A DNA stretch of 64,000 nucleotides from Octopus sinensis. Lineage: Eukaryota. Of the stretch, positions 7,768 to 61,576 are shown in pieces (positions within the stretch are counted from its first letter, which is position 1; every line of letters begins with the position of its first letter). The notes beneath the pieces were generated by a model. That model saw only the letters and a program-made list of their open reading frames with translations. It had not been told where the DNA came from and did not search any database. The translations under genes and the position numbers were made by a program. The stretch is taken from the NCBI RefSeq assembly GCF_006345805.1, contig NW_021833028.1, positions 62,001 through 126,000 on the forward strand, written 5' to 3'.

Positions 7768-8780
7768 TCAAAATAAACTTTTAAACATTTTGATCAATTT
7801 AGAAAGCGAATATTTAACAGATTTGTATGGACCAGCCGTCACCAATCCCTTGACTGTCTGCGAAAGACTGGCCCGGGAGACAATAGCCTTTATAGAGCTC
7901 ACAATCATCTGACGTGAAGGCTGATGAGCCAAAGTCAACAAAACTTCCTCCATGTCGGGATACTTCTGGTCGACATTCATTCTGTGCCACAACTCCAACT
8001 GCAGATTTTTAGGCAAATGATTCAAATGATGAAGTCTGGAGGAATACACGTGCTGTTGCTCGAAAATCCCCTCTTTTTGATGCCAGCACAAATGTCCTTC
8101 AAATCCATTTATAAGTGGACCGTAAAGATCTCGAAAATTCTGAATATGCCCACGAAAAATGTTTTTTATTTTATTTTTATCTTCTCCAAACTAAATAATA
8201 AATAAATAATTAAATTACAATTAATCTAAAATCGCCACTATAAGACAACCAAATAATCATGCTGAACAAATCCTCTTCACTAAACGACTCAGGAAGGAGA
8301 AGAAGCGCAGTATGCAAAGCAGAAGAAAGATTACTGTGCAAAGCAGTCTTTAAATCCTCAGGAAAAACATCCTTCAAAGCCCAAACAGGCTTTTGTAGTC
8401 TACTCCTGTTATAGACCACGTGACCTTCCACTGGCATAAAGGCAATCCCAGTCATACAAGTCGGAGATCAGGTCCTCGGATGTGATGACTCCATATTTGT
8501 AGTATAATCCTTCGTGGGGGATCAGAGTATTGTAGAACATCTTTGAGCCATGTTTACGTTGGAGATTGGCTAGTTTGGAGGGGCCTGCGAGACTGCAGAG
8601 GGAATAATGTTTAGGATTTGTTCTGAGGTTGGAGGTGTGGAAGAGGACTGCGTCTTGTACTACGACTATGAGGTCAATCATTTTGGATTGTTGAGGAAGT
8701 ATCCCAGATCCGTAGGCGAATGCCATTGTTATTGGATCAGGGAGAGTAGATAGGAAACCACGACACTTCTCAAGTGTCAT
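7768..8780 (-). CDS. TAMM41: Mitochondrial phosphatidate cytidylyltransferase Tam41
   Basis: AFAYGSG, MIDLIVVV, YKYGVI, LYASGR|LQKPV, SYSGDFR, SLSQTVKGLVTAG; introns 8400-8424 (25 nt) and 8191-8218 (28 nt) restore frame. Confidence 0.95.
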
Positions 8781-9368
8781 GTGTAAAATCTATTAAATTT
8801 AAATTATTATTTTTTTCAACTTTTTTTATTATTATTAATAATTTATACAATTAAAAAAAATCTAGCTATTAGGTACCAGATTCTAACCTTAACGTACAAG
8901 TCATGTCTTCTACCTTTTTGTGTTTTGGATATGAAATTTGTAGACATTTAGAAACTCTTGCAATAATCCTCGTAACTAGCTTGAATGAATCCAAACGAAG
9001 GAAAAAGTAAAGAACTCAATAGAACAAGTAACCAGGAAGAAAAATCCAAAAAAGAGTGCATTCACAGTTTCCTAGAAATCTTAGCAAAACAAATGTGAAA
9101 ATGGCACAAAACAATCAAGGAATGTCTCATTTTTATAAAACATGTCGATTTGATTATTCCGCAAATAATGTTGAGAACCCACGGTAAATATACGTGGGAT
9201 ATGGCTCAGGATCCTCTGTTGGCTAATCAGCAAAACACGTTTTGAGAGAATGTCTCATCTGGAAAAACAGATAGACTAAAAGCATGAGTTTAAATAATAA
9301 TTATAATCTAAGTAAAAGTTTAATTTTAAACTACTGTTTTTTGAATTGATTATAATTGTGGTTGTGTT

Positions 9369-10169
9369 ATGGAAGTTGCTTCAGACATTCCGACATTTCA
9401 TTTCAACGGACTAGAAAATACCGAACGCCCTCCAATCGCGGAAATTAATAAAATCTTCAAAACCAAAATCCTACATGGAACAACCACCATGGCTTTCAAA
9501 TACAAAGACGGCGTGATAGTGGCTACTGATTCCCGGGCAACTGCTGGAGCAACAATCGGTATTTTCTGATTATAACTCTCAGGGTCCCAAACGGTGAAAA
9601 AAGTAATTCCGGTGACTCCCAACGTTATTGCCACTATGGCCGGAGGGGCTGCCGACTGTCAATTCTGGCTAAGAATAATGACTTCTAAGGCTCAGTAAGT
9701 TAAAAATCTCAACCCAATCAATCATAGAGCATACAGGATCCGACATAACAGAGAAATGTCAGTTGCGGCGATTTCATTAATGCTGGCCAACTCTTTGTAT
9801 CAATATAAGGGGTATGGACTCAGCATGGTAGTTTTGGGCATGGAGACTGAGTAGGGGTCGACGATTGTGGGGTATGATAAGACTGGATTCCATATTTACA
9901 TGGTGGAGGACAGTGGACTGAGATTGGAGGTCGATATGGGCGGATATGGCTCAGGATCTCCGTATGCTTATTCTGTGATGGACAATAAGTACAAGAGGAC
10001 GGATCTCCCCTTTGAGGATGCTGTCCAATTGGCGAAGGAGGCTATTTCGAATGCCACCAAATTCGATACGATGAGTGGAGGACATGCCAATATTTATTGT
10101 GTCACCAAAGATGGCTATCGACAACTTTGCTTTACTGATGTCGATGACTTATATGCCCAGGGGTTCTAA
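9369..10169 (+). CDS. PSMB5: Proteasome subunit beta type-5 (propeptide plus catalytic Thr1)
   Basis: [35 protein letters not shown]; introns 9559-9582, 9695-9727, 9828-9854. Confidence 0.95.
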
Positions 10170-10816: not shown

Positions 10817-12870
10817 CTAATTATCTTCTTCCTCACATAAGTCAATTTTACAACTGAAAATGTCGATTGTCTTCTGCCTGCTCACAATATTCTAATTTTA
10901 ATCAAAATAAACAGATTGACCTTCGCAGTTGCATTCTCGAGATATGTTTTGATTAGATCACGTGCCGACTCTACAAAATCCTCAGATTTGTCATATGCAG
11001 GTAAGATTAATTGCTCATCCAAGTCCATCTCCTGGTTAAATTCTACAAATTTCTCATGTCCCAGCTTAAAGTAACTAAATAATCTTCCAAACCAATATTT
11101 GAGGTGAATGGAAAAAATAAGAAGGGAGATATGAAGCGAGGGTCGTAACAGAATGAGCGTAAATATCAGCGAACCTCTGAACCTGATGAAAAAAGTAGCT
11201 ATGCAATGACCCTGAAATGATCCCAAAAATACAACCTGACCGAAATGCGCTTCCAAAAATTCCGTATTGGGCATCAATCATTTGACTAAGGGACTAAAAT
11301 GAGCCATTTTCCCATTACCTTGTAGGCAGATGATGCCCAGATTGCTATATTTTTATCTTCGTGTTTAGAGTGACTATGAATGAACTAAACGTGGTACAAT
11401 GTATTTTTTTGAATTTGGTCGAGTCCATCAAGCATTTTGTAGGACCTGTAATTAGACCACCACTGTTTGATTTCTTTTTTGAGGTCTGGTATGATCAACA
11501 TGGTTTTCCAGAAATTTTTTTTAGATTTTAATATGTCTCCATAAATAGAATCTCCGACATAAATAACAGACCGAGTTTTTGCTCCAGTAAGACGACAGAA
11601 CTCGGAGGCAGAGCCTCAAAAAATAAAGTCACAGTCAAAACCTCCAGAGTAAATAAACCCAGGTTTTAACTCGTTCAATTCACATTTAAGAGTTTTAGAT
11701 TTTTCCTTCTGCGCATCACATGTATCACTTTACTTGATCAATTAAACAAAAATGGTCTTTTTTAGATGTAAAAAATGCAGGTTTTTTGGAATCTACAATG
11801 ACGTAATCAAAATAATCTGTCCACTCAAGGTCGTCCTCATCCAGCAAATAGCGCATAATTTTCTATTTCTAGTAAAAAGTGGACAAACCTCGACGTAGTT
11901 ATATTTACTGTTCGTCAAGAGAAATGTTTTGCACCCGCATTCTCTCAATCTTAATTCAAGAAAATAACACAAAACTGAAGAAGGACCTTCCCAATGAGAG
12001 GATCTTTGTCCAAATATTTCGAAATGTCGGCCAATATTGCTGGTTTTAGTTCCTTGACATTTGGATAAAATTGTCACATTTTTGTGAACGTAGACAACAT
12101 TCTCGTCAATTTCACGATACAAGTCAGCGTAGAAGATCATGTAATCTCCCTCTACATACAGTCCCGTTTTTTCACTAAGATTTATTATTTAATTTGGACT
12201 ACTCTGACTCACTTCCGATTGTCATGTAGTAATCCACGACTTGAGAAATAAGCGAAATGACTTAAAATAGTGTGGAAAATATCCAAACCACTTTGGCAGT
12301 ATACTGTACTGAAAATGACAAAGTTTTTGTCACTCAAATCAATGTGACGATTAGGATAATAACAGTCGATCTCCTGCCTAATCATTAAAGTAACATGTGC
12401 ACTGTTCAAAAAGTCTTGTCCCGTGAGTAGCCACCAAGATGTGTCCGTAGGCATCCACCTTAAGGAAATTTCCATGAAATATATCATAGCATACTCCACT
12501 TTCATGTAAAAAATATAGCAAACCGGACTGCAAATGATTTGTCGTATTCAAACTCGCGTATTTCTCTTGGAAAACCGATTTGTACTAATCTTTGTTTGAT
12601 TAAATCAAATATCAGAGTTTCCATTTCTGGAGACTTGTACACTGTTCAAAATCATTAAAAAATCTGAAACAAGCAAGTGTATAATCCATGTCAAATCCGT
12701 AGTACTCCAGTTTGTCCAAACGAAGATTAGAGTTTGCATAAATTCTTATTTTGAAAAGTTTTTTTTTACTTTTCGGTATATTTGTCCTCAATAGAAATGC
12801 TCGGATTTTTGGACATTTGCATCCTTTGCTTTAGAATATGAACCAGTGATTCTTTACGTGTGGTGCTCAT
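10817..12870 (-). CDS. NT5C2: Cytosolic purine 5'-nucleotidase (HAD family)
   Basis: [53 protein letters not shown]; many micro-introns; one probable homopolymer error near 11760. Confidence 0.92.
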
Positions 12871-13170: not shown

Positions 13171-16100
13171 ATGAATTATTCTGGAATTAAAAACGTTTCA
13201 AGTTTCACAGAACAGCCAAACCTGCTAAACGAATTTGACAGGTATTATATTTAAATATATCAGCACTTTCTACGGAATAAAGATAAGCCAGGAACTTTTA
13301 CTCCGGCTAGATCGAGTATACTCTTTCTCTCTTTTACATCAAGACTGTCAATATTTTGGAAGAACAGCTTCGTATATCAGAAATAAATGGAGCCGAAATA
13401 GCCCTCAAACTCGGCCATTTAAACCTTATTCTTAAAAGCTATCGGAAATGTAACTTTTTGATAATATTCTAAGCACTTTCTGCATATCAGTTATATTTCA
13501 AACTGAACAAAGATTCCTGGAGAAATGAAAATTTTCTCTTTGGAATAGGAATTTGCTACTACCGTTTCGGATCAATAGAAAAGTAAGTCAACATTCATTC
13601 ATATTTTAAGTGCCCTCAAAGTACTTCTTCAACTGCTGTTCGAATGCCCTCTTTTTTGTCGCTTAGTGGATGTTTATTTTATTCTGGCTCTTATATACCG
13701 CGTAAAACGGAATTATTCGAGATATTTATACGTTTTTTACTGATTGTGAGTATATTTAGTTCCTCAAACTAACTCTTCATCAATGCAAGCCTTACAGCCT
13801 CCAGTACTACGAAGGTAGGCAGTATTTTTATATTGAAATAGTCAAGCTATTCATGGTTCAAGGCTACGTTCACAAAGTTGTTAGAAACAAATGTTTTGTA
13901 GGGAAAAATCAATTTGGCTGGAAAATTTTTACAAGAAATTTTGGAATCGAGTTGTCCTCAGAAGGTCAAGTCTCAGGCGATGCTTCAAACTGGTATTTGA
14001 GTGGCATGTCAGAATAGCCTGGATGCTCTTCACTGGGATAGACATGTCGGGAATTGCCAGGAAGGATGAGGTCGAGGACTACCTCCGTCTGGCTATCATG
14101 TCTGACCCCTCCAACATCACTGCCTGGTACTTCTTCGGGCGGTAGGCGTAAGTGGACTATTCAGTAGATATAACTCAGAAGTAGGCAATATTGGGCTGGC
14201 CTTGGATATTTATCTTAGCACAGTGGATAACATTTGGGGTACCTCCAAGATGTGGTGTTCTGTCGGGTTGTCTACTTTATCAGCATTTCAGACTTCTCTA
14301 TCACGGACAAAACCAGCACAGCGACGCCTTGCAAGCATATGTGTGTGCATTGAAATTAAATCATTGCGATGCTGGCACGTGGATAAATATGGCCATTCTG
14401 TATGAGCAGAACATGCAGATTAACGACGCCGTCGAGTGCTATCGCCATGCACTCAAGTATTCTAGTGAGTGCTTGTTTTGCTCATTTGAAGCACAAAAGC
14501 AACAAATTCGTAGCAAAATATACTCCCTGGCCAGCCATAACGTAGTTCCACGACAAAACAAGTCGTTTTGTTTCAATTTTTAGGCTTCTCTCAATCCGTG
14601 AGGTTGTAAACGACGTTTTTTTCAAATCGGTAATTCATAAGAAAGTTGTTCTTTGATTGTTCCAATTTAGTTGAGGAATGACGGCGGAGAGTACACCAAA
14701 TTGCTGTTTAAAAAGACTTCAACTGTCTATTGCGTTGATCTGTCGTTTAATCGTGGTAGGAGAATTTATCTGAGTTGTCCAGTCGGCTTTACAGTTTCGG
14801 ACTTAGTCAAGAAAATATTGACAATCTAAAAAAAATGGAGGGAGTGCCTTTAAATTCGCTTGTCGTTTTTTTGGTAATTTTTTTAGTCAGATACGTTTCT
14901 CCGTGGATATGCCTTGATCTGTCGGTCTGACGAGTTGGTTTGCCCTTCAACCCGGTTTTTTGATGCTGAGGAAGTATTGTTGTTATATCAGTAATACAAG
15001 CTATCACACAAATCTTGTTCTCATTACGGAATCGACTCGAGTGATTTAAAAATGCTTCCAACGGGTATTTTTGTGGCTAATTTGTTGATGTCGGATGTAT
15101 TTCAGAGAAGTCTCCTTTTAATAACTCGTCCATCAAGTCTTTGGGAATTCCGTTGCAAAGACGTACCAAAATAATTAATGTGATTTATATTCTTTATTTT
15201 TAGTTTGATTCCAAGTTGGAGTCAGCCTGGATTGAGCTCAGAAATATTTGTTATCGAAATGACTGCGCTGTGATTAAAAATTTATGTTTGCATACAAAAT
15301 TTGGTAGATTTATTGAAATATCCAGATTGTTCTGCATTTTCTTCATCTTTGTTACAAAAGTTGATTGCACAGAGAGAAACATTAGTAAAAATCCACGTTT
15401 ATTCCAAATTTACAACTGTTGGTAGGCCTATCATGGGACTCCAGAAGAGAACGGGGATTTTAGTGGGGAGAATGGATGGAGAATGACACAAAAACATATC
15501 AAATCAGACGTGTTTCGTTCTGCAGCTTATCAATTTCGTAGTTTCAAAGATGCGTCAAAAGTTTGTGAAATATGCGTCATTCTAAGGCCGAATCGTGCGG
15601 ATTGGAAATATCGGATTCTTTTCAGGACAAGGAAATCCACATATCCAACGTTGAGCTTTTTGCTGAAGGAGAATCCAGTAATTTATGGTCCCAACAAAAG
15701 CATGAACTTGACAAATTTCCGTCATTTTTGAGGGTCTTTTAGCTTTAAATGATTTTAGATAAATTCGAAATTAAATATGCTCACGTATATTAATTATTGG
15801 CCTGTTCACGCTGGGCCTTGTTTAAATATGCTTGTGCCGGGTTCTCGGCTTACTGGTTTGTTTACTTTTTTATTCCCAGCTCGCCGAACTTTAGGGGGGT
15901 TAGTGTCCGTTTATCTCAATACGGGACCTGGGAATGTCGAGTGGTTTTGTATTCCGAGCGAATTTTCATCCGAATTTAATTCTGCCTGCGAATTGTTGTA
16001 AATTATGTACTAAGAATTAGTTATGGGATGAGCTGTTTTGACTCCAATTCTTCGATATGGCCAAATCTGGATTCGTTGGGCGAATTGAATATTCCATATC

Positions 16101-16785
16101 ATCGATTTATTCAAAAAAGTGGGGATTTAATCTGGCTGAATTCTGGCTGCATTTATTACTTCCAATCTCATGTGGATTTTCGTTTGATAAAATAGGGCTG
16201 GGCGAACACGGTCTCTTGGTGTTTGGCACCAATGACGCGCCAGCACTTGCAATCGATCGTAGCGTGTTATGAATTTGACAGATATAACTATTATAAGCAG
16301 ACTGTCCCAGCTGTACATTTGTGTTGGACACTGAGACAGTCACTGCGATTTGTCGATGAACAGTTTTTTAGTATTGTCAAGTATTTTTTACATATATTCG
16401 AGAAATGTGTTGTGGAATTCTCTAATGAAGTGCCAAAGAATTTCCGAATATGTGATTTCCGCTGGGTATCAGTCCAGGATGAAGAGAATGAGTGATCACT
16501 GTTTTAAAGACGATAAGTTTAGAGTCTATTTTTGCATTGTTTGCCGGGTTGTGGGTTTTACTTTGACTTGGATAGTGTGAAATATTCAATTTTATATTCG
16601 CGCCTGTAGATTCGAGTGATATTTCTGTCAATCACTCATCAATGAGTGACAAGATTACTGTGAGTGTAATGTGTCATCGTTGTGTTCTTCAACGGTACTC
16701 CAATTTAGATAATGTGATTATAATTATGGATCGAGAAATGAGCGAATTAACGAATATTCATGATTCATTCCAACGTGTTGTTTAA
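13171..16785 (+). CDS. KDM6A: KDM6/UTX orthologue (TPR + JmjC + Zn finger); JmjC catalytic residues substituted
   Basis: LGHLNLIL, LSAYQ, WYFFGR, WCSVG|LLY, DALQAYVCA, VPGSR, GPGNVEWF, RFIQKSGDLIWLN, CIVC..CHRC; many 22-35 nt introns; linker 14600-15200 not fully resolved. Confidence 0.92.
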
Positions 16786-17144: not shown

Positions 17145-18619
17145 TGCGGACAAGATTATCTATTCGGAGACTGGAGTCCAGCAAGGGGACCCGCTTGGTC
17201 CACTTCTCTTTGCGTTGGCAATCGACGAAACTGTACGTTCCATCAGCGCGGAACTGAACCTCTGGTATCTTGATGATGCCACGATTGGAGGGCCGTGGGG
17301 AAAAGTTTTTGACGTTCTGTCACAAGCCGTGCCTGTACTACGAAAACTCGGACTCGATATAAATATAAAGAAATCGGAGCTGATAAATATCACAACAAGG
17401 GTCTTTCTAGAGTTACGGAGAAACTCTCCTTACTCAATGCTCATACTGCATTCTTCCTTTTGAAAAATAGCATTGGCTTGCCTAAACTCCAATACGCTCT
17501 CCGTTGTTCTCCCTGCTTGGAACATCGAGACATTCTACAGACACTGGATAGAACTTTGAGAAGTTCAGCTGAATCGCTCTTGAACATCCACTTTGACGAA
17601 CCTGGTTGGAATCAATGCAAACTTCCTACACGCATCGGAGGAACGGGTCTCAGGTCGGCGCTGGATTTCGCATTCCCGGCATATCTGTCATCGCTTTCAA
17701 GCTGCAGTCATCTCGTCCAGGAAATCCTACGTAACACTACTGGACTCTCCTTGGACACAGTATTTGACAAGGCTTGCTTGCCATGGAAAGAAGCCGGACT
17801 TTCAATCCCGGATGATGTCTCGAGACAGAATTGTTGGGACGCAATATCATGCAAGTTGAACCAACACCGGCTCGTCTGTTTGCTATCCGGGGCACAGCAC
17901 GGGAGTGGTGCATGGCTCCACGCATTTCCATGCAGTTCATTCGGTACGCTTATGGACGACGATTGTGTGAGAATCGGTGTTGCACAACGCTTGGGTCTTG
18001 ACGTCTGTCAGGAACACAGATGCCGGTGTGGAGGAATAGTCGATTCCAAAGGACTACACCTTTGTCTTGCAAGAGGAGTGCAGGTCGCGCTCCCCGCCAT
18101 GCCGCACTCAACGACATAATACGACGGGCCCTCGAGAGCGCAGGATTTCCAGCACACCTGGAACCCGTCGGGCTTGACTGGGGAGATGGCAGAAGGCCCG
18201 ATGGGATAACTCTTTTCCCGTACTCGAAAATCACTCGCATGGGATGCGACGTGCGTAGACACGTTCTCCCAGTCCATGATTCTTCGGAATATTCATTCGC
18301 CCGGTTGGGCTGCTAGTGCAGCAGAAAAGGCGAAGATATCTAAGTATTTGGAGATCGGAAAACTTTTCCGTTTTGTCCCAATCTCGATAGAGACGTCTGG
18401 TGTAGTGGGATCCAAAACCGCGGAATTTCTCAAGGAAATTGGGGCGATGCTGGCTAAACGAAGGAGGGACAGTCGCGAGGGGTATTGGCTCCGCCAACGT
18501 ATCGGAATTGCAGTTCTTCGTGGCAACACGCACGCGATACTGGCTGCCGGAGCGTGACGATTTATAATATAAAACTAATCTAGCTTCGTTTTGGTTAATA
18601 AAATTAAATAATAACACAA
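17145..18619 (+). mobile_element. 5'-truncated CRE-type retrotransposon (RT C-terminal part + CCHC + REL)
   Basis: [41 protein letters not shown]; 13-bp TSD AAGATAGGAACTT (17132-17144, 18620-18632). Confidence 0.92.
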
Positions 18620-19179
18620 AAGATAGGAACTTGTTTTCGCATCCACTGGGTCATTATGCAATTATTGTAAAAAAACATAAAAACTTTTGACCATTTTCCA
18701 GCTCTAGCGTTCGGGTTTAAGTTAGGGTTAGGATGAAAATCATATGCGAGTTCTCCTTGTGGATGCAACCAATCTATTTGATTTTTTAGGAGACCCGTCT
18801 CCGTTATTGTTGACTTTATTAACTTGTTTACTTCCTCTGCACCCTCCCTATCATCTTAAACTAAGGATTTATGATATGTTGTCTCAATATGTGATTGTCC
18901 AGTTAAAAAAAACTTGCACTATAACCTATTCAAGCCGCTGAAAATAATACGTCGATACTCCATAAGCGCAGATATCAACAAATGGGAAAGTGCGTCGCCT
19001 TCTGTATAAATTCGTCTTAAAATTTGTTTTCGTGGATGCTTTTGTGTGATGTGGCTATTATTTTTCTTATTTAAATACTCATTTTCAAAAAATCAACAAA
19101 TCCAAAAATACACTGAAAACATGGACTAAATCAGAAATATGATTTATTTAGGAAACAATAAAAAGTGTCACCGTGCGAT

Positions 19180-25585: not shown

Positions 25586-28399
25586 ATGGAGTCTTGTGAG
25601 TTCACGTGCAAAATAATCGAAAGTATAAAGAATTTTAAAGTATTAAATTCATTTAATAAAAGAACGAAATTGAAGATAATATCAAATACGAGAACTTGAA
25701 GTCTGCAATAAGAAATCATCTTAGCCGGCCTTTAAAAAACATTATCAAATCAGTAGACACACTCTCATCTCAAGAAAATGCTCACAACATTTTTTTCGAC
25801 ATTATCCGCCTGGATATTGGCAATGTTTCAGAGAATTCTATTCTTCTTCGTGCTTATTTCGTCATAGTTCTCCAGTTTGACTGGCTAGATTACTTTATCA
25901 AAGTAATTTACTCAAAAAACTCTTAGAAAAGTGGTTCGTTGAGCCCCGCTGAGCAAATTCCACTTTACGCGAATCTTATTTCTGTCTTAAACGAAAGTGA
26001 ACCTGGAAATTCGCTGTTTCCGGCAAAATTTCAGCAAATTTTTATTTTCATATTTTCCGATGAAAACAGCTTTGTTTTTAAAAAACCGGAAACTGATTAT
26101 TTCACTTTGATTGAGGCCGCAATGACCACATTGATGGATAGATTTACTCCCAAATTCGTGCTCAAAATATACCTGAACTACTCTCTGCTTCTCAATCAAC
26201 AGGAATTAAAATTTTTCGATATTTTTACCCGCAATGTTGGCATTTTAGTCAAAAATGGACGGGTTGGTCTTGATTTTGTACTTTCTCTAATCCTCGATAT
26301 GTTTTTAAAAGTCGATTCCTCTTCTTTTGCTCAGTTTCTGGTCCTTCGCAGTGTTCCTGTCAATTTCTCATTTTATAAGTGCATTGAGCCTTTGATAAAA
26401 TTCTTTGATTTGTCAACCAGTGACCTCATAAACCAGCTTCCGTGGGAACCAAGACAAGTTTTATTGTCCGTCAAGTCGGTTGTTGGGCTGTGTGGAGGAT
26501 CTGTACCAACCTGTGGAGATATTTTATGTTGGCTACTCGAATTTATTCCCGGAAAGACCTCAAAGAATGAAGTTATGAGGGAAATGTATCTCTCGTCTGA
26601 TCATTGCTTAGTTTTGATGCCATTCATTCAGCATTCAATCAGAATTTCCGAATATTTGAGGATATTTCGACCTGGCTGCTCCTCACCGACTTGATGAGAC
26701 TATTTAAGGACCAGGGTGGACATCGAGTTAAATTTTCTGGTTAATTTTAGTTATTACGGGATCTTTTTAAAAAACAGTCCCCCAAATTCCGGTCCTCACT
26801 CCCTCCCTTGGAATGTCCGTTGGATATCGAGACTTTGTGTGAGAAGGGACTATCGACTTGTAGTGATTGGTCATTGGAGTGGTCATTTTTTGCTTCTTAT
26901 TACAAAACTGCGGTCAGACTGGTTCAAGAATTTATTAAAGCTAAACCAGAACACGTCAATTTGACTAGAATTTGCAGAGAATTTACCAAAAGGACTGATT
27001 TGCTGAGAATTTTGGGAGAAAATGTAACAGTCTTCTGTTCAGACGAGTCCCTGTTAACAAGTCGACTCGAGTTTTTGATTTCTGTTTTGTAATTTTTGAT
27101 ATTTTTAGAAAAATTGTCTCGTCGATGGATTTTTGGACAGTTTTTATGATTTGGTTGTCGCCCCTGTGATTGATGCATGTTCCCTCAACAGTCCCAAGTC
27201 GGCAATTTATTCCACTCTTACTGTTGCAGAGGTAGACTACTCAAATGACTATTTTAGACTTTTTGTGTCAGCTGTGATAAGAATACGACTGAAGTTGTCA
27301 AGTTTATACTTTATTTGTTGGATTTCACTCATTTTTTGTTCAAAAACTCAGAGAGTGGTGAGATGGTGCCCAATCCTTCCCACTTTATGTACGTCAAAAG
27401 TAGGGTTTTGGGGTCTTTGGTGTGCATTTCTAAGGTGGAGACAGTCCGCGAAGCTGTTTCAAGTTGATTGCAAATAAATCGAATTTAGACGTGTTAAATG
27501 ACATTCATTCCCCCACACTTTTGACTCATTTCTACGTAAAACAAATATTCGGAATATCGTCACACAAACTGACAACCCAGTTGACTATGTTTGCTAATAT
27601 TTAGTGAGTTGTCTGGACAGGATTGCCTGGGAGTGGCCGATCTGGTAAACCTTGCTCGCTCTGGCTGTTTACAAGCACACGTTAAGGTGGATTACTGTCA
27701 TTTGCTGTTGGCTGTTTCGTCAGTTAATGACTTTTGGGGTTGATTTTGATAGATTGTGCCGCATTGCACGTCTCGGGAGTTTAGATCAGTTGTCGAATTC
27801 TGTTCTTCTCTCATCTGTCCAGACACCTGTTGTGAAAACCATTTGGCATGTATTATTCAATATTCTGACCCACTAATAGCTGCAGCCACGTTTTCGTCAG
27901 TTTCGACATTCTTGTGTCATTTGATGTCTGTGCTGTTGCCCAATTTGTCTGATTTTGGCGACTATCGACGACAGCTTACGGGATATTATTTAAGCTTCGT
28001 TCGAGTTAGTTTATGTGCTGATTGGACAGAAGAAATTGTTGGTGGATGCTCAGTGTTTTGTCAATGAGACGATTCGAGGACTAGTGCTGGACGAATTGAA
28101 GCATCAGCTTACTAATCTTGTTGCGTTGCTGATGGACAGGGACTGTGATGAATTCTCTATGATCAACTCGGTTATTTTTTCGTTGACTCAATGAGTTTTT
28201 GAATGTGTGGTTTTTTGAGGGGTTTAAAATATGCGACTGAGTTAAAATTTTTTGTTAATTTGAGTAGCTATGGACTTTTTTATAACACTGATTTTCACTG
28301 AATGATTTAATTATGTAATAATTTTGCTCAGCTGAGTATCCTCGTGACATGCCAGCTCCGCAAGTTGATCTTCGTTATCAACCTGGATTATTGAATTAA
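25586..28399 (+). CDS. Uncharacterised multi-exon protein (Leu/Phe-rich, probably helical)
   Basis: Successive open exons joined by GT-AG micro-introns; 3' exons not fully resolved; no family recognised. Confidence 0.6.
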
Positions 28400-31499: not shown

Positions 31500-33816
31500 C
31501 AGTGATTCTTAACGGGGGCGCTGGCGCCCCCCTGGGGGCGCTGGAACATATTAGGGGGGCGCTGGAATTTTAATTTTTTTTAATTATTATAAATATTTTA
31601 TTAGTTTTTGTAAATCATTATCACGTGCTTTTCTATTAATTCTAAATTCAAATTGTCTTGTGTGTACGTAAAAAAATTATTCACTGATAATATTTATAAA
31701 TATTTGTTAATTGTATTTAATATTTTAGAACTTTTTAATAAATATTTTAATTATATTTTATAGATGTCTGATAAAAAAGTAAAACGACGTATATATTCGG
31801 ATGAATACCTAAAGTTTGGAGTGATACCCTACGACCATAACAATTCACTTCCAATGTGTCTTATGTGTAAAAAGGTCTTTACAAATGAAGGAATGAAGCC
31901 TTCAAGAATGCTAAATCATCTTAAGATTTGTCATCCTGACAAACTTGATGCGGATATCAATTATTTTTCTAATCTGAAATATAATTATGAAAATCGTCTT
32001 ATGATTAATCAACTATTTACAAAAAATTCGAAGATGCTTGAAAAAGGCCTATTAGCATCATACAAAATATCGCAATTGATAGCGAAATCAGGAAAACCTC
32101 ATACTATTGGAGAGTCATTAATATTACCAGCTATCAAAGAAGTGTTAAATTCAATGGTTGATTGTGATTCTGAACAAATAATTTCATCAATTCCTTTGAG
32201 TAATAGTTCTGTTTCTTCCAGAATTGATGAAATGGCATTTGATATCGAAGAAACCCTATGTGCATTTTTAAGAACAACAAAATTTTCAATTCAGATTGAT
32301 GAATCGACATTCAACGATAGTGTTGCACTTTTATTAGTTTACGTACGTTATATTAATCAAAATGATGTAATTCAAGAAGAATTTTTATTTTCTGAACACC
32401 TTGAACTCGATACAAGAGGATTAACAATTTTCAAAACTGTTGAACAATATTTTTTGAAACATGAAATACCCCTTAGCAATATTTTTGCTTGTTCAACAGA
32501 TGGGGCACCTGCGATGGTTGGAGTTCATCGTGGGTTTTTGGCATATATGAAGGAAAAAGTACCGAATATTTTTACAATCCATTGCGTCATTCACAGACAG
32601 CATTTAGCTGCGAAAAATTTAAGTGAGAGGCTGAATGAATCACTAAATGTTGTCATATGTGCAATAAATCGTATTAAAATGCACCCATTGAATTCGAGAA
32701 TATTTCGACATATTTGTGAACAAAACGATGAGCATTATGAACGACTTCTTTTGCATACCCATGTTAGATGGCTTTCAAAAGGAAACTGTTTGTGTCGATT
32801 TTTTGAATTGTATGATTCAATCTTAGAATTTTGTCAGTTACATGAGCAGAGAATTTTTAGGTAATTATTCCTTAATCATTTTAGTAAGTTGATTTTATTG
32901 AAAGCTGATATAGCTTATCTAGCTGATATTTTTTATAAAATCAACCAAGTAAATATTAGCTTGCAAGGAAACAATATCAATTTAATAAATGTAAAAGGAA
33001 TTATTATGCCTTTTATTGAAAAATTACAACTTTATGAAAACAATATTAAGAAAAAGATTTTTATTAATTTTCCAAATCTACAAAAATTTGGGGTTATTTT
33101 TTGTAATAATATTTATTAGGTCGAAAAATTAACGGATTCTGACTGTGAATGCTTTTGCTTGCATCTAAAAATGTTAAAAGATGACATGAAAATCCGCTTT
33201 GAAGATTTAGAAAATTTAAAATTTTTTGATTGGTATATAAATCCATTTGAAACTGAAAACGTTAATTTATCTCAAGAAATAACAGAAAATTTATTAAATC
33301 TGAAATATGACTTTGAAGCTAAAGTCATTTTCAACAAATATGGATATCAACAATTCTGGGTTACTCATAGAAAAAAATATCCTTTATTGTGGAATGAAAT
33401 TGAAACACTTATAATAGCATTTCCTTCAACATATCTAGTTGAAAGAGGATTTAGTGCAGTCTCTAATATTTTGACCAAAAAAAGAAATAAATTACAAATT
33501 GTGAATAGAGGAGATTTGAGACTAAGTCTGTCGACTATTGAAGCTGACATAAAACGATTGACAAATTCCCATCAAGCACAAGGCAGTCACTAAAATTTTT
33601 TTATATAAAAAAGTTTGGTTTGTGAATACCCTTTTTAATTCTAAAAAATAATAAGTAATATTCGAAAATATTAAAATGAAACAATTGGCGAAAAAATTGC
33701 CAAATAAATCTATAATTGAAAAAAAATAAATTAAATAATAGGGGGGCGCTGAAATTTTGAAGCTTCGAAATTGTGTCAAAAGGGGGCGCTGACTTAAAAA
33801 AGGTTAAGAACCACTG
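31500..33816 (+). mobile_element. Complete Buster-type hAT transposon, apparently intact
   Basis: TIR CAGTGATTCTTAAC vs CAGTGGTTCTTAAC; TSD GTCTAAAA (31492-31499, 33817-33824); GGGGGCGCTG subterminal repeats. Confidence 0.95.
31764..33593 (+). CDS. hAT transposase (TcBuster/ZBED5-like), 592 aa after splicing
   Basis: Exons 31764-32860, 32885-33092, 33120-33593; BED finger CLMC..H....H, IDEST, TDGAPAM, HCVIH, VRWLS, YLVERGFS, ends QAQGSH. Confidence 0.92.
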
Positions 33817-60633: not shown

Positions 60634-61576
60634 ATGTATTTAAAGATTTGTAAATGTATAGTGATTGTTATATTCGGCACGCTGCTATTAATAAATTTTT
60701 CAAAATACGAAGAATCAGTATCATTTATAAAATATAGTTTTAAAGTTCGACACCATAGAAAGTTCAGAAGGAGAGAAAGAAGGCGAGAAAATAGTACTCG
60801 TGAGTGCTTACTACGTGATTGATTCCTTCACAAAAGTCGGCGGAAAAATCCGCACAAAGGAAAACTATTACACGTGGTTAGATCGATTCCGTTTTATAAA
60901 CAACGACCTGATATTCTTTTCCGACAGTTATGAACCATTGCGTCATGTGAGGAAGATAAGAAAGTCGAAACCAACATTACTCCTGTTCCTAAACCGATCA
61001 GAACTTATCGGATTCAAAAACATTGACAAAATAAATCACATATTCACACTCCCTGGATATCGACGGGATTTAACCGAAACAGCAAACTGCCACTACTCGG
61101 CTATCATGCACTCCAAGCATGACCTGATTGAACGAGCTATTAAATTGGGTGGAAATTTGTCTTATTATGCGTGGGTCGACGCCGGGTTGTTCCGCTATAC
61201 TCCCTTTTCTGAAGACGTCATATTGAGGGCCAACAAATACATAGACAAGACACGGTTGGTGATGTCCCAGATCTATGACTTCCGTGACTACTCTATTGAG
61301 GAAATTACCAAGGGTCCCCATATTTGGGTCTCAGGGGGGTTTTTGGTGGGATATGTCAATGTTTTGCTCAAGTTTTGCGAAGTTTACAGAAATTTCTTTT
61401 TTAAATTGCTGTCGATGAACTTGATAGCCACTGACGAACAAGCTATCTACTCGCTCTATTCGAGTCAGGGAAGGGCTCTTATGAATGACAGTGTCAAGTT
61501 ACAAGTTTTTCAATGTCAATATTTCGGACTATATTCCCTGTTTGGTAGAGTTGTTGCGGTTGAAAGCTGTCCATAA
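60634..61576 (+). CDS. HtrL/YibB (WlaTC)-like putative glycosyltransferase, type II membrane protein
   Basis: N-terminal TM, 28-nt intron 60718-60745, then LVSAYY, YSAIMHSKHDL, YAWVDAGLFR, VSGGFLVG, TDEQAIY. Confidence 0.75.

Follow-up and report, generated by a model that had tools for sequence, protein, structure and literature searches.

The closest described relatives of the gene reported here are human UTX (KDM6A; PDB 3AVR) and the invertebrate Utx and UTX-1 proteins, demethylases of trimethylated lysine 27 of histone H3 (H3K27me3), in which a tetratricopeptide repeat (TPR) region is followed by a JmjC domain, a helical domain and a GATA-like zinc finger. The ligand set of the KDM6 site has been described (PMC4140284). 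In human UTX the change H1146A, Y1135C or T1143I alone abolishes activity, and Y1135 touches the methyl groups of K27me3 (PMC3459986). There is dispute over whether UTX matters for its enzyme activity or for its role as a scaffold, catalysis being dispensable in worm and mouse experiments and essential in flies (PMC3342935, PMC3459986, PMC5788527). Both a low-activity KDM6 and pseudo-JmjC subunits are already known. Mouse UTY (KDM6C) carries natural changes at Y1135 and T1143 and has a demethylase-independent role (PMC3459986); UTY however keeps the H-E-H triad of iron ligands, human UTY shows residual activity (PMC4140284), and the protein sits beside active UTX and JMJD3. JARID2, of the KDM5/JARID branch, is an inactive JmjC protein kept as a subunit of a repressive writer, Polycomb repressive complex 2 (PRC2; PMC11241480). 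Here we describe a UTX/KDM6 gene in a window of 64,000 nucleotides deposited as Octopus sinensis (GCF_006345805.1, contig NW_021833028.1, positions 62,001 to 126,000), DNA which most likely belongs to a co-sequenced dicyemid parasite. Its product has the same domain order as UTX/KDM6A and UTX-1 but is without the Fe ligands, the 2-oxoglutarate ligands and the tyrosine that contacts K27me3, and its linker is only ~125 aa long. Unlike UTY, it has lost the triad, and no active paralogue was found in the same organism; unlike JARID2, it belongs to the KDM6 family and would serve the activating MLL3/4 complex.

Removal of 27 GT-AG introns of 22-41 nt (median 26) leaves a single open frame of 962 codons (Table 1). 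The linker introns are without homology support and are the least certain part of the model. The TPR region, which is predicted to be the MLL3/4-binding part, is split across nine short exons. Most of the long disordered stretch found in the middle of other UTX proteins is absent, the protein having 962 aa versus 1402 aa in a fish homologue (P0192). TPR, JmjC (PF02373) and KDM6_C-hel (PF21322) score above the Pfam cut-off and KDM6_GATAL below it (E 0.06); compared directly with UTY and UTX the zinc-finger exon gives weak matches (E 0.08-0.24), and both CxxC pairs align with those of homologues. An exon-by-exon search of the PDB returned UTY, UTX and KDM6B as the top structures. The first-pass annotation had described the TPR exons, the JmjC fold and the CxxC..CxxC finger as open and had excised a 24-nt intron at 15856-15879; on both points we agree. 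When 15759-15998 is aligned unspliced to the UTY and UTX structures, an 8-residue insertion falls exactly on that intron, and the latter is judged to be real because an intron interrupts the host KDM6 gene (on G000:C1) at the identical codon and phase. Compared by eye, each of the ten introns in the C-terminal half has a counterpart in the host KDM6 gene that agrees in position and phase; the host gene has at least one extra C-terminal intron, in a variable segment. With its TPR array, KDM6-type JmjC and helical domains, four-cysteine zinc domain and ancestral intron positions, the gene is, by sequence, a KDM6/UTX orthologue by descent.

Table 1. Features of the UTX gene and its surroundings in the window (positions are those of the window).
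Feature	Position	Strand	Basis or remarks
UTX/KDM6 orthologue	13171..16785	+	28 exons modelled; homologue tblastn
TPR region, exons 3-11	13344..14464	+	Pfam TPR_1, E 5e-10; aligns with UTX homologues
Shortened linker, ~125 aa	14584..15179	+	Gene model and homologue alignment
JmjC exon with Y1135N, K1137L, T1143L	15759..15855	+	PDB alignment, codon table
24-nt phase-1 intron, GT..AG	15856..15879	+	Place matches host KDM6 intron
JmjC exon with H1146R, E1148T, N1156Y, C1164V; S1154 and W1166 kept	15880..15994	+	
JmjC exon with H1226Y	16021..16171	+	Pfam, PDB matches, codon table
JmjC end (C1234A, N1236T) and KDM6 helical domain	16196..16380	+	Pfam KDM6_C-hel, E 3.5e-10
GATA-like zinc finger, four cysteines	16403..16785	+	CxxC 16533-44, CxxC 16672-83; stop 16783-5
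Frameshifted non-LTR retrotransposon (reverse transcriptase and restriction-like endonuclease)	17145-18629	+	13-bp target-site duplication
TAMM41	7771-8789	-	
Proteasome beta subunit	9345-10169	+	
NT5DC-like gene	~10885-12830	-	By eye; head-to-head with UTX gene

All three Fe ligands are replaced: H1146 by R (CGC, 15882-4), E1148 by T (ACT, 15888-90) and H1226 by Y (TAT, 16154-6). K1137 and N1156, which we take to be 2-oxoglutarate ligands, read L (15831-3) and Y (15912-4), and T1143 reads L (15849-51). These six changes had been listed in the first-pass annotation, which called the protein a pseudo-demethylase. The codon table confirms them and adds Y1135 to N (15825-7), C1164 to V, C1234 to A and N1236 to T, so that ten of the twelve sites in a pocket set of our own choosing are altered and S1154 and W1166 are retained. 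The numbering of H1146, E1148, Y1135 and T1143 is that named in PMC3459986; for H1226, C1164 and C1234 it is the UTY number of PMC4140284 plus 53. Counted from the genetic code along the shortest codon paths, the ten changes take no fewer than 15 base substitutions, yet 28 exons have stayed in frame; the loss is therefore old and the gene has been kept. The active-site codons are identical on C6108, a contig collinear with the window at ~99% and read as its second haplotype, which argues against sequencing error. None of the 10 enumerated in-frame GT/GC-AG splice paths, nor unspliced read-through, places His at the Fe site, and alternative splicing as a means of restoring it was rejected. Adenosine-to-inosine editing was rejected too, as by genetic-code reasoning neither His nor Glu can be reached from these codons. 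The HxE..H triad, the 2-oxoglutarate ligands and the K27me3-contacting Y1135 of an active demethylase are all missing. Because a single change of H1146, Y1135 or T1143 is enough to abolish the activity of human UTX, it is close to certain that catalysis has been lost, and we predict that the protein cannot demethylate H3K27.

The product is highly divergent, with ~30% identity to other animal UTX proteins and a very long branch (4.2 changes per column). A phmmer search of 1.84 billion representative proteins gave 73 matches, all at or below 41% identity, and a word-based search with the helical exon for a closer relative gave one candidate and no match, and no second dicyemid orthologue. Of 101 near-invariant C-terminal columns 52 are retained, one of 10 in the pocket versus 51 of 91 elsewhere (Fisher p 0.007); on this alignment the active-site loss is selective. 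The KDM5 of the parasite retains its HxE..H and its EZH2 has an open SET domain, so rapid evolution is not by itself enough to wipe out active sites in this organism.

The window sits on a 207-kb unplaced contig (C9499) of the 2.7-Gb assembly. This and five other short-intron contigs show CpG observed/expected ratios of 0.73-0.96 and no dinucleotide microsatellites (0.94 and zero in the window itself); at chromosome loci the ratio is 0.28-0.31 and microsatellites number 1.7-8 per 10 kb. By our own count, which left out ten loci on the window's own contig and haplotype, repeats of the window and its upstream neighbour recur at nine of 74 unplaced loci and at none of 85 chromosome loci. The nine include the SUZ12 contig (96.6% over 469 bp) but none of the stretches that carry Pax6, EZH2 or KMT2C/D. 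Two types of small-subunit ribosomal RNA occur in the assembly, one of 1,667 nt on C1618 and one of ~2,600 nt on chromosomes. The Pax6 paired domain on a further short-intron contig, C9061, is 98% identical to that of Dicyema acuticephalum, the next best of 12 listed matches reaching 77%. Published dicyemid introns have a mean of 26 or a median of 27 nt, and equally short ones are reported only from myxobolids (PMC2222250, PMC6543705, PMC13644364); the introns of the window gene, at ancestral positions, have a median of 26 nt. The link between the window contig and C9061 is indirect, through the CpG ratios, introns and repeats common to short-intron contigs. The window DNA is most likely that of Dicyema, co-sequenced as a parasite, and the intact KDM6 gene on C1 is most likely the host's; dicyemid biology suggests that this host is a cephalopod. 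A sizeable Dicyema-like genome appears to have been assembled along with the host, on unplaced contigs of up to 1.29 Mb that include C9499, C6108, C1794, C8703, C9073, C9061, C8320 and C1618, the last with this genome's own 1,667-nt ribosomal RNA. Findings on such contigs are therefore not to be credited to the host, and we flag this undeclared parasite DNA in the host assembly.

With 23 candidates scored for the JmjC family, 40 for the helical family of KDM6 and 7 for an exon of the intact host gene, searches of the assembly, which score the best candidates only and lose sensitivity where introns are short, recovered KDM6 on C1, C9499 and C6108 only, and no active parasite copy. An intact paralogue beside a decaying duplicate had been raised in the first-pass annotation. 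An intact KDM6 is indeed present, on C1, but with its kilobase introns, CpG ratio of 0.28 and microsatellites it was assigned to the host and rejected as a paralogue of the window gene. The window gene and its counterpart on C6108 thus appear to be two haplotypes of the single KDM6 orthologue found on dicyemid-type contigs. The only further JmjC gene on unplaced contigs was KDM5, with HxE..H intact; a KDM3-like query, meant for KDM2/7, found chromosome copies only, and the protein atlas holds a single weak JmjC cluster. It may be recorded separately that, within the limited sensitivity of these searches, KDM5 and the dead KDM6 were the only JmjC genes recovered from parasite-type contigs, matches to KDM3, KDM4 and JARID2 lying solely on host chromosomes. 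An active parasite KDM6 might be absent from the assembly or too divergent to be seen, the window gene being its dead partner as mouse Uty is beside Utx. The parasite DNA is by-catch of unknown completeness, short introns reduce sensitivity, and copepods hold both intact and eroded KDM6 sequences. We nevertheless regard this as quite improbable: the same searches recovered both dead haplotypes and no third parasite-type locus, an intact copy should score higher, and contigs of this type did yield EZH2, SUZ12, KMT2C/D, SET1, NSD, SETDB1, SUV39, SETD8, KDM5 and Pax6.

The first-pass annotation had tentatively connected the dead site with a lost or rewired H3K27me3/PRC2 system, and this connection did not hold up. 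An EZH2 gene with MCSS, CXC and an open SET domain (best PDB match EZH2, E 3e-24) and the VEFS box of SUZ12 are found on short-intron contigs, as are SET1-, NSD-, SETDB1-, SUV39- and SETD8-like genes, named by eye. Eleven divergent histone H3 loci were examined (L115-L125), the parasite genes being 71-79% identical to host H3 (e.g., G000:C9082:279126-279530 and C7512:190866-191302). The K27 region is unreadable in three; the other eight all keep K27 and all lack P30, and two copies carry R26L. The main type reads ARKSVSQF, without A29, and an intron-bearing type reads ARKSATA with K37R; residues R17-L20 are conserved in the parasite H3 types. The loss of P30 may be linked to the loss of KDM6 activity. 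In pattern searches for H3, a short pattern matched mostly a host repeat and a longer one host-type H3 only. Chromodomains on parasite-type contigs are mostly HP1-, CHD- or SUV39-like. A chromodomain protein of ~125 aa on C6303 (L158:289-790) weakly prefers CBX6/CBX4 (E 0.002-0.005), with HP1 close behind; it has no chromoshadow domain and no Pfam match to a Pc-box, and is a candidate for a miniature Polycomb/CBX reader. As a side observation, many HP1-like genes with chromodomain and chromoshadow-like parts occur, some in tandem (C8320, C12669, C8460, C8593, C9497, C12596, C8901, C8702, C8695 and others).

Comparison of the two haplotypes reveals seven synonymous and four non-synonymous coding differences, a ratio of non-synonymous to synonymous polymorphism (pN/pS) of 0.15 (binomial p 0.0025). 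All four indel events lie inside modelled introns (p 0.0016), a test that is not fully independent, as the C6108 haplotype had been seen before gene modelling. Neither haplotype contains a stop, a frameshift or a broken splice site, and the polymorphism is not neutral. These data bear on the proposal that the gene is a decaying pseudogene, or that its loss of catalysis mirrors loss of the whole H3K27me3 system. In favor of this, a retroelement lies ~360 bp downstream in the window haplotype, and the H3 sequences flanking K27 have diverged; we still consider the proposal very improbable in view of a 28-exon frame open in both haplotypes, the low pN/pS, and the presence of EZH2, SUZ12, K27 and the Polycomb-like chromobox candidate.

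What, then, is the protein for? The N-terminal TPR region of UTX binds MLL4, and an HMG box helps to stabilize UTX (PMC7608747). In the worm, a catalytically dead UTX-1 rescues and remains in the SET-16 complex (PMC3342935). On C9073 we find a KMT2C/D-type gene with 24-25 nt introns, which encodes a SET domain (E 2e-28, best match KMT2D/C), PHD/ePHD fingers and an MLL3-type HMG box (E 3e-5). Since the organism appears to have both the TPRs and an HMG-box-bearing KMT2C/D, we think it probable, though well short of assured, that this intact and spliceable gene with a dismantled pocket is an old pseudo-demethylase persisting as a structural subunit of MLL3/4-COMPASS. The TPRs would bind KMT2C/D, and H3K27me3 would disappear through dilution at replication or exchange of histones, with no enzyme removing it. 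The fly requirement for the enzyme concerns HOX activation. The ~30-celled D. japonicum has four Hox genes, which are unclustered (PMC6736024), a plausible reason why the enzyme could have been given up.

Several observations weigh against such a structural role. The seven synonymous differences are confined to the N-terminal half and the four non-synonymous ones to the C-terminal half (p 0.003), so the polymorphism gives no signal of present-day constraint on the JmjC/zinc half. Conservation does not clearly favor the TPR region (43/83 conserved columns kept) over the JmjC core (40/92). The disordered linker of UTX drives condensates with MLL4 (PMC11241480) and is mostly gone from this protein. 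In Drosophila UTX's catalytic activity is indispensable, for HOX activation (PMC5788527). Finally, the parasite genome is an accidental and possibly incomplete part of the assembly, of which only the best candidates were scored. The uneven polymorphism and the very long branch would also suit a vestigial JmjC/zinc half on which selection has relaxed and which persists solely through its fusion to a TPR domain that is needed, or as an aid to protein stability. This we hold to be improbable, as neither haplotype has a stop or frameshift and the 52 near-invariant columns and the zinc cysteines have outlasted an old catalytic loss; four changes are moreover too few, the chance of no synonymous change among four being 0.41 under neutrality.

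The first-pass annotation had left the choice between a scaffold and a reader; scaffold is the most likely role, while the reader part has been weakened. Were the protein a reader, or a competitor, the dead JmjC domain and zinc finger would be kept mainly to bind the H3 tail or nucleosome, and the TPR/COMPASS role would be secondary. The fold residues, the helical domain and the four zinc cysteines are retained, as are 14/25 conserved columns of the zinc domain. The zinc domain of UTX reportedly binds the R17-L20 stretch of H3, which the parasite H3 types conserve. However, Y1135, the contact to the methyl groups of K27me3, is lost, P30 is missing from the parasite's H3s and A29 too from their main type, and the four polymorphisms of the C-terminal half are all non-synonymous; this explanation appears unlikely beside that of a COMPASS scaffold.

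Loss of the triad is not confined to the window gene. Among 201 homologues, 160 span the JmjC core; the set is biased, 119 having been collected with a copepod query that is itself eroded. The H-E-H triad is kept in 145 of the 160 and lost in 15: Caligus QQP38964.1 (R-E-T), Lepeophtheirus (H-E-Y), six copepod-clade proteins, two hymenolepid tapeworm entries (H-E-F), a nematode-clade protein (P0065, R-A-Y), an ant protein in its second JmjC copy, two others, and one entry that is probably mis-predicted. Several of the proteins annotated in databases as JmjC/KDM6 are accordingly predicted to be unable to bind iron normally (the eroded entries are P0025, P0071, P0087, P0091-P0095, P0065, P0067/P0074 and P0084). 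His-to-Arg at the first ligand occurs in 5/160 and His-to-Tyr or -Phe at the third in several. The eroded KDM6 of copepods, tapeworms and the nematode clade resembles the window protein in the loss of one to three Fe ligands, and differs in keeping 72-91 of the 101 invariant columns versus 52. In a quick tree, in which the placement of the window protein is unreliable, the eroded proteins nest in separate taxonomic clades, for which reason the losses look independent and recurring. Since one transition suffices for His-to-Arg and likewise for His-to-Tyr, mutation rather than adaptation may lie behind the convergence. A search of the openly accessible literature, supplements to the Dicyema genome paper aside, turned up in the text covered no description of a UTX lacking the triad in dicyemids, copepods or tapeworms, nor of the eroded sites in the nematode-clade protein and the ant duplicate domain.

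An animal whose sole detectable KDM6 lacks the metal site, with PRC2 and MLL3/4 retained, is a natural test of the enzyme-versus-scaffold question. Dicyemids would write and read H3K27me3 without a KDM6 eraser, a natural dead-UTX knock-in having been kept; the repeated, independent erosion of this pocket in copepods, tapeworms and a nematode, often through an identical His-to-Arg change, would then mean that what animals in general cannot lose of UTX is its scaffold role and not demethylation; we regard the chances of this wider view as evenly balanced.

The retrotransposon downstream of the gene is absent from the C6108 haplotype and, judged by its motifs, is presumably CRE-like. Open frames at 25927-26691 (+, 255 codons) and 31764-32861 (+, 366 codons) gave no Pfam match at E 1e-4. 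A 281-codon frame at 60731-61573 (+) matches HtrL_YibB (E 2e-7), a bacterial family of unknown function, and is possibly the result of horizontal transfer.

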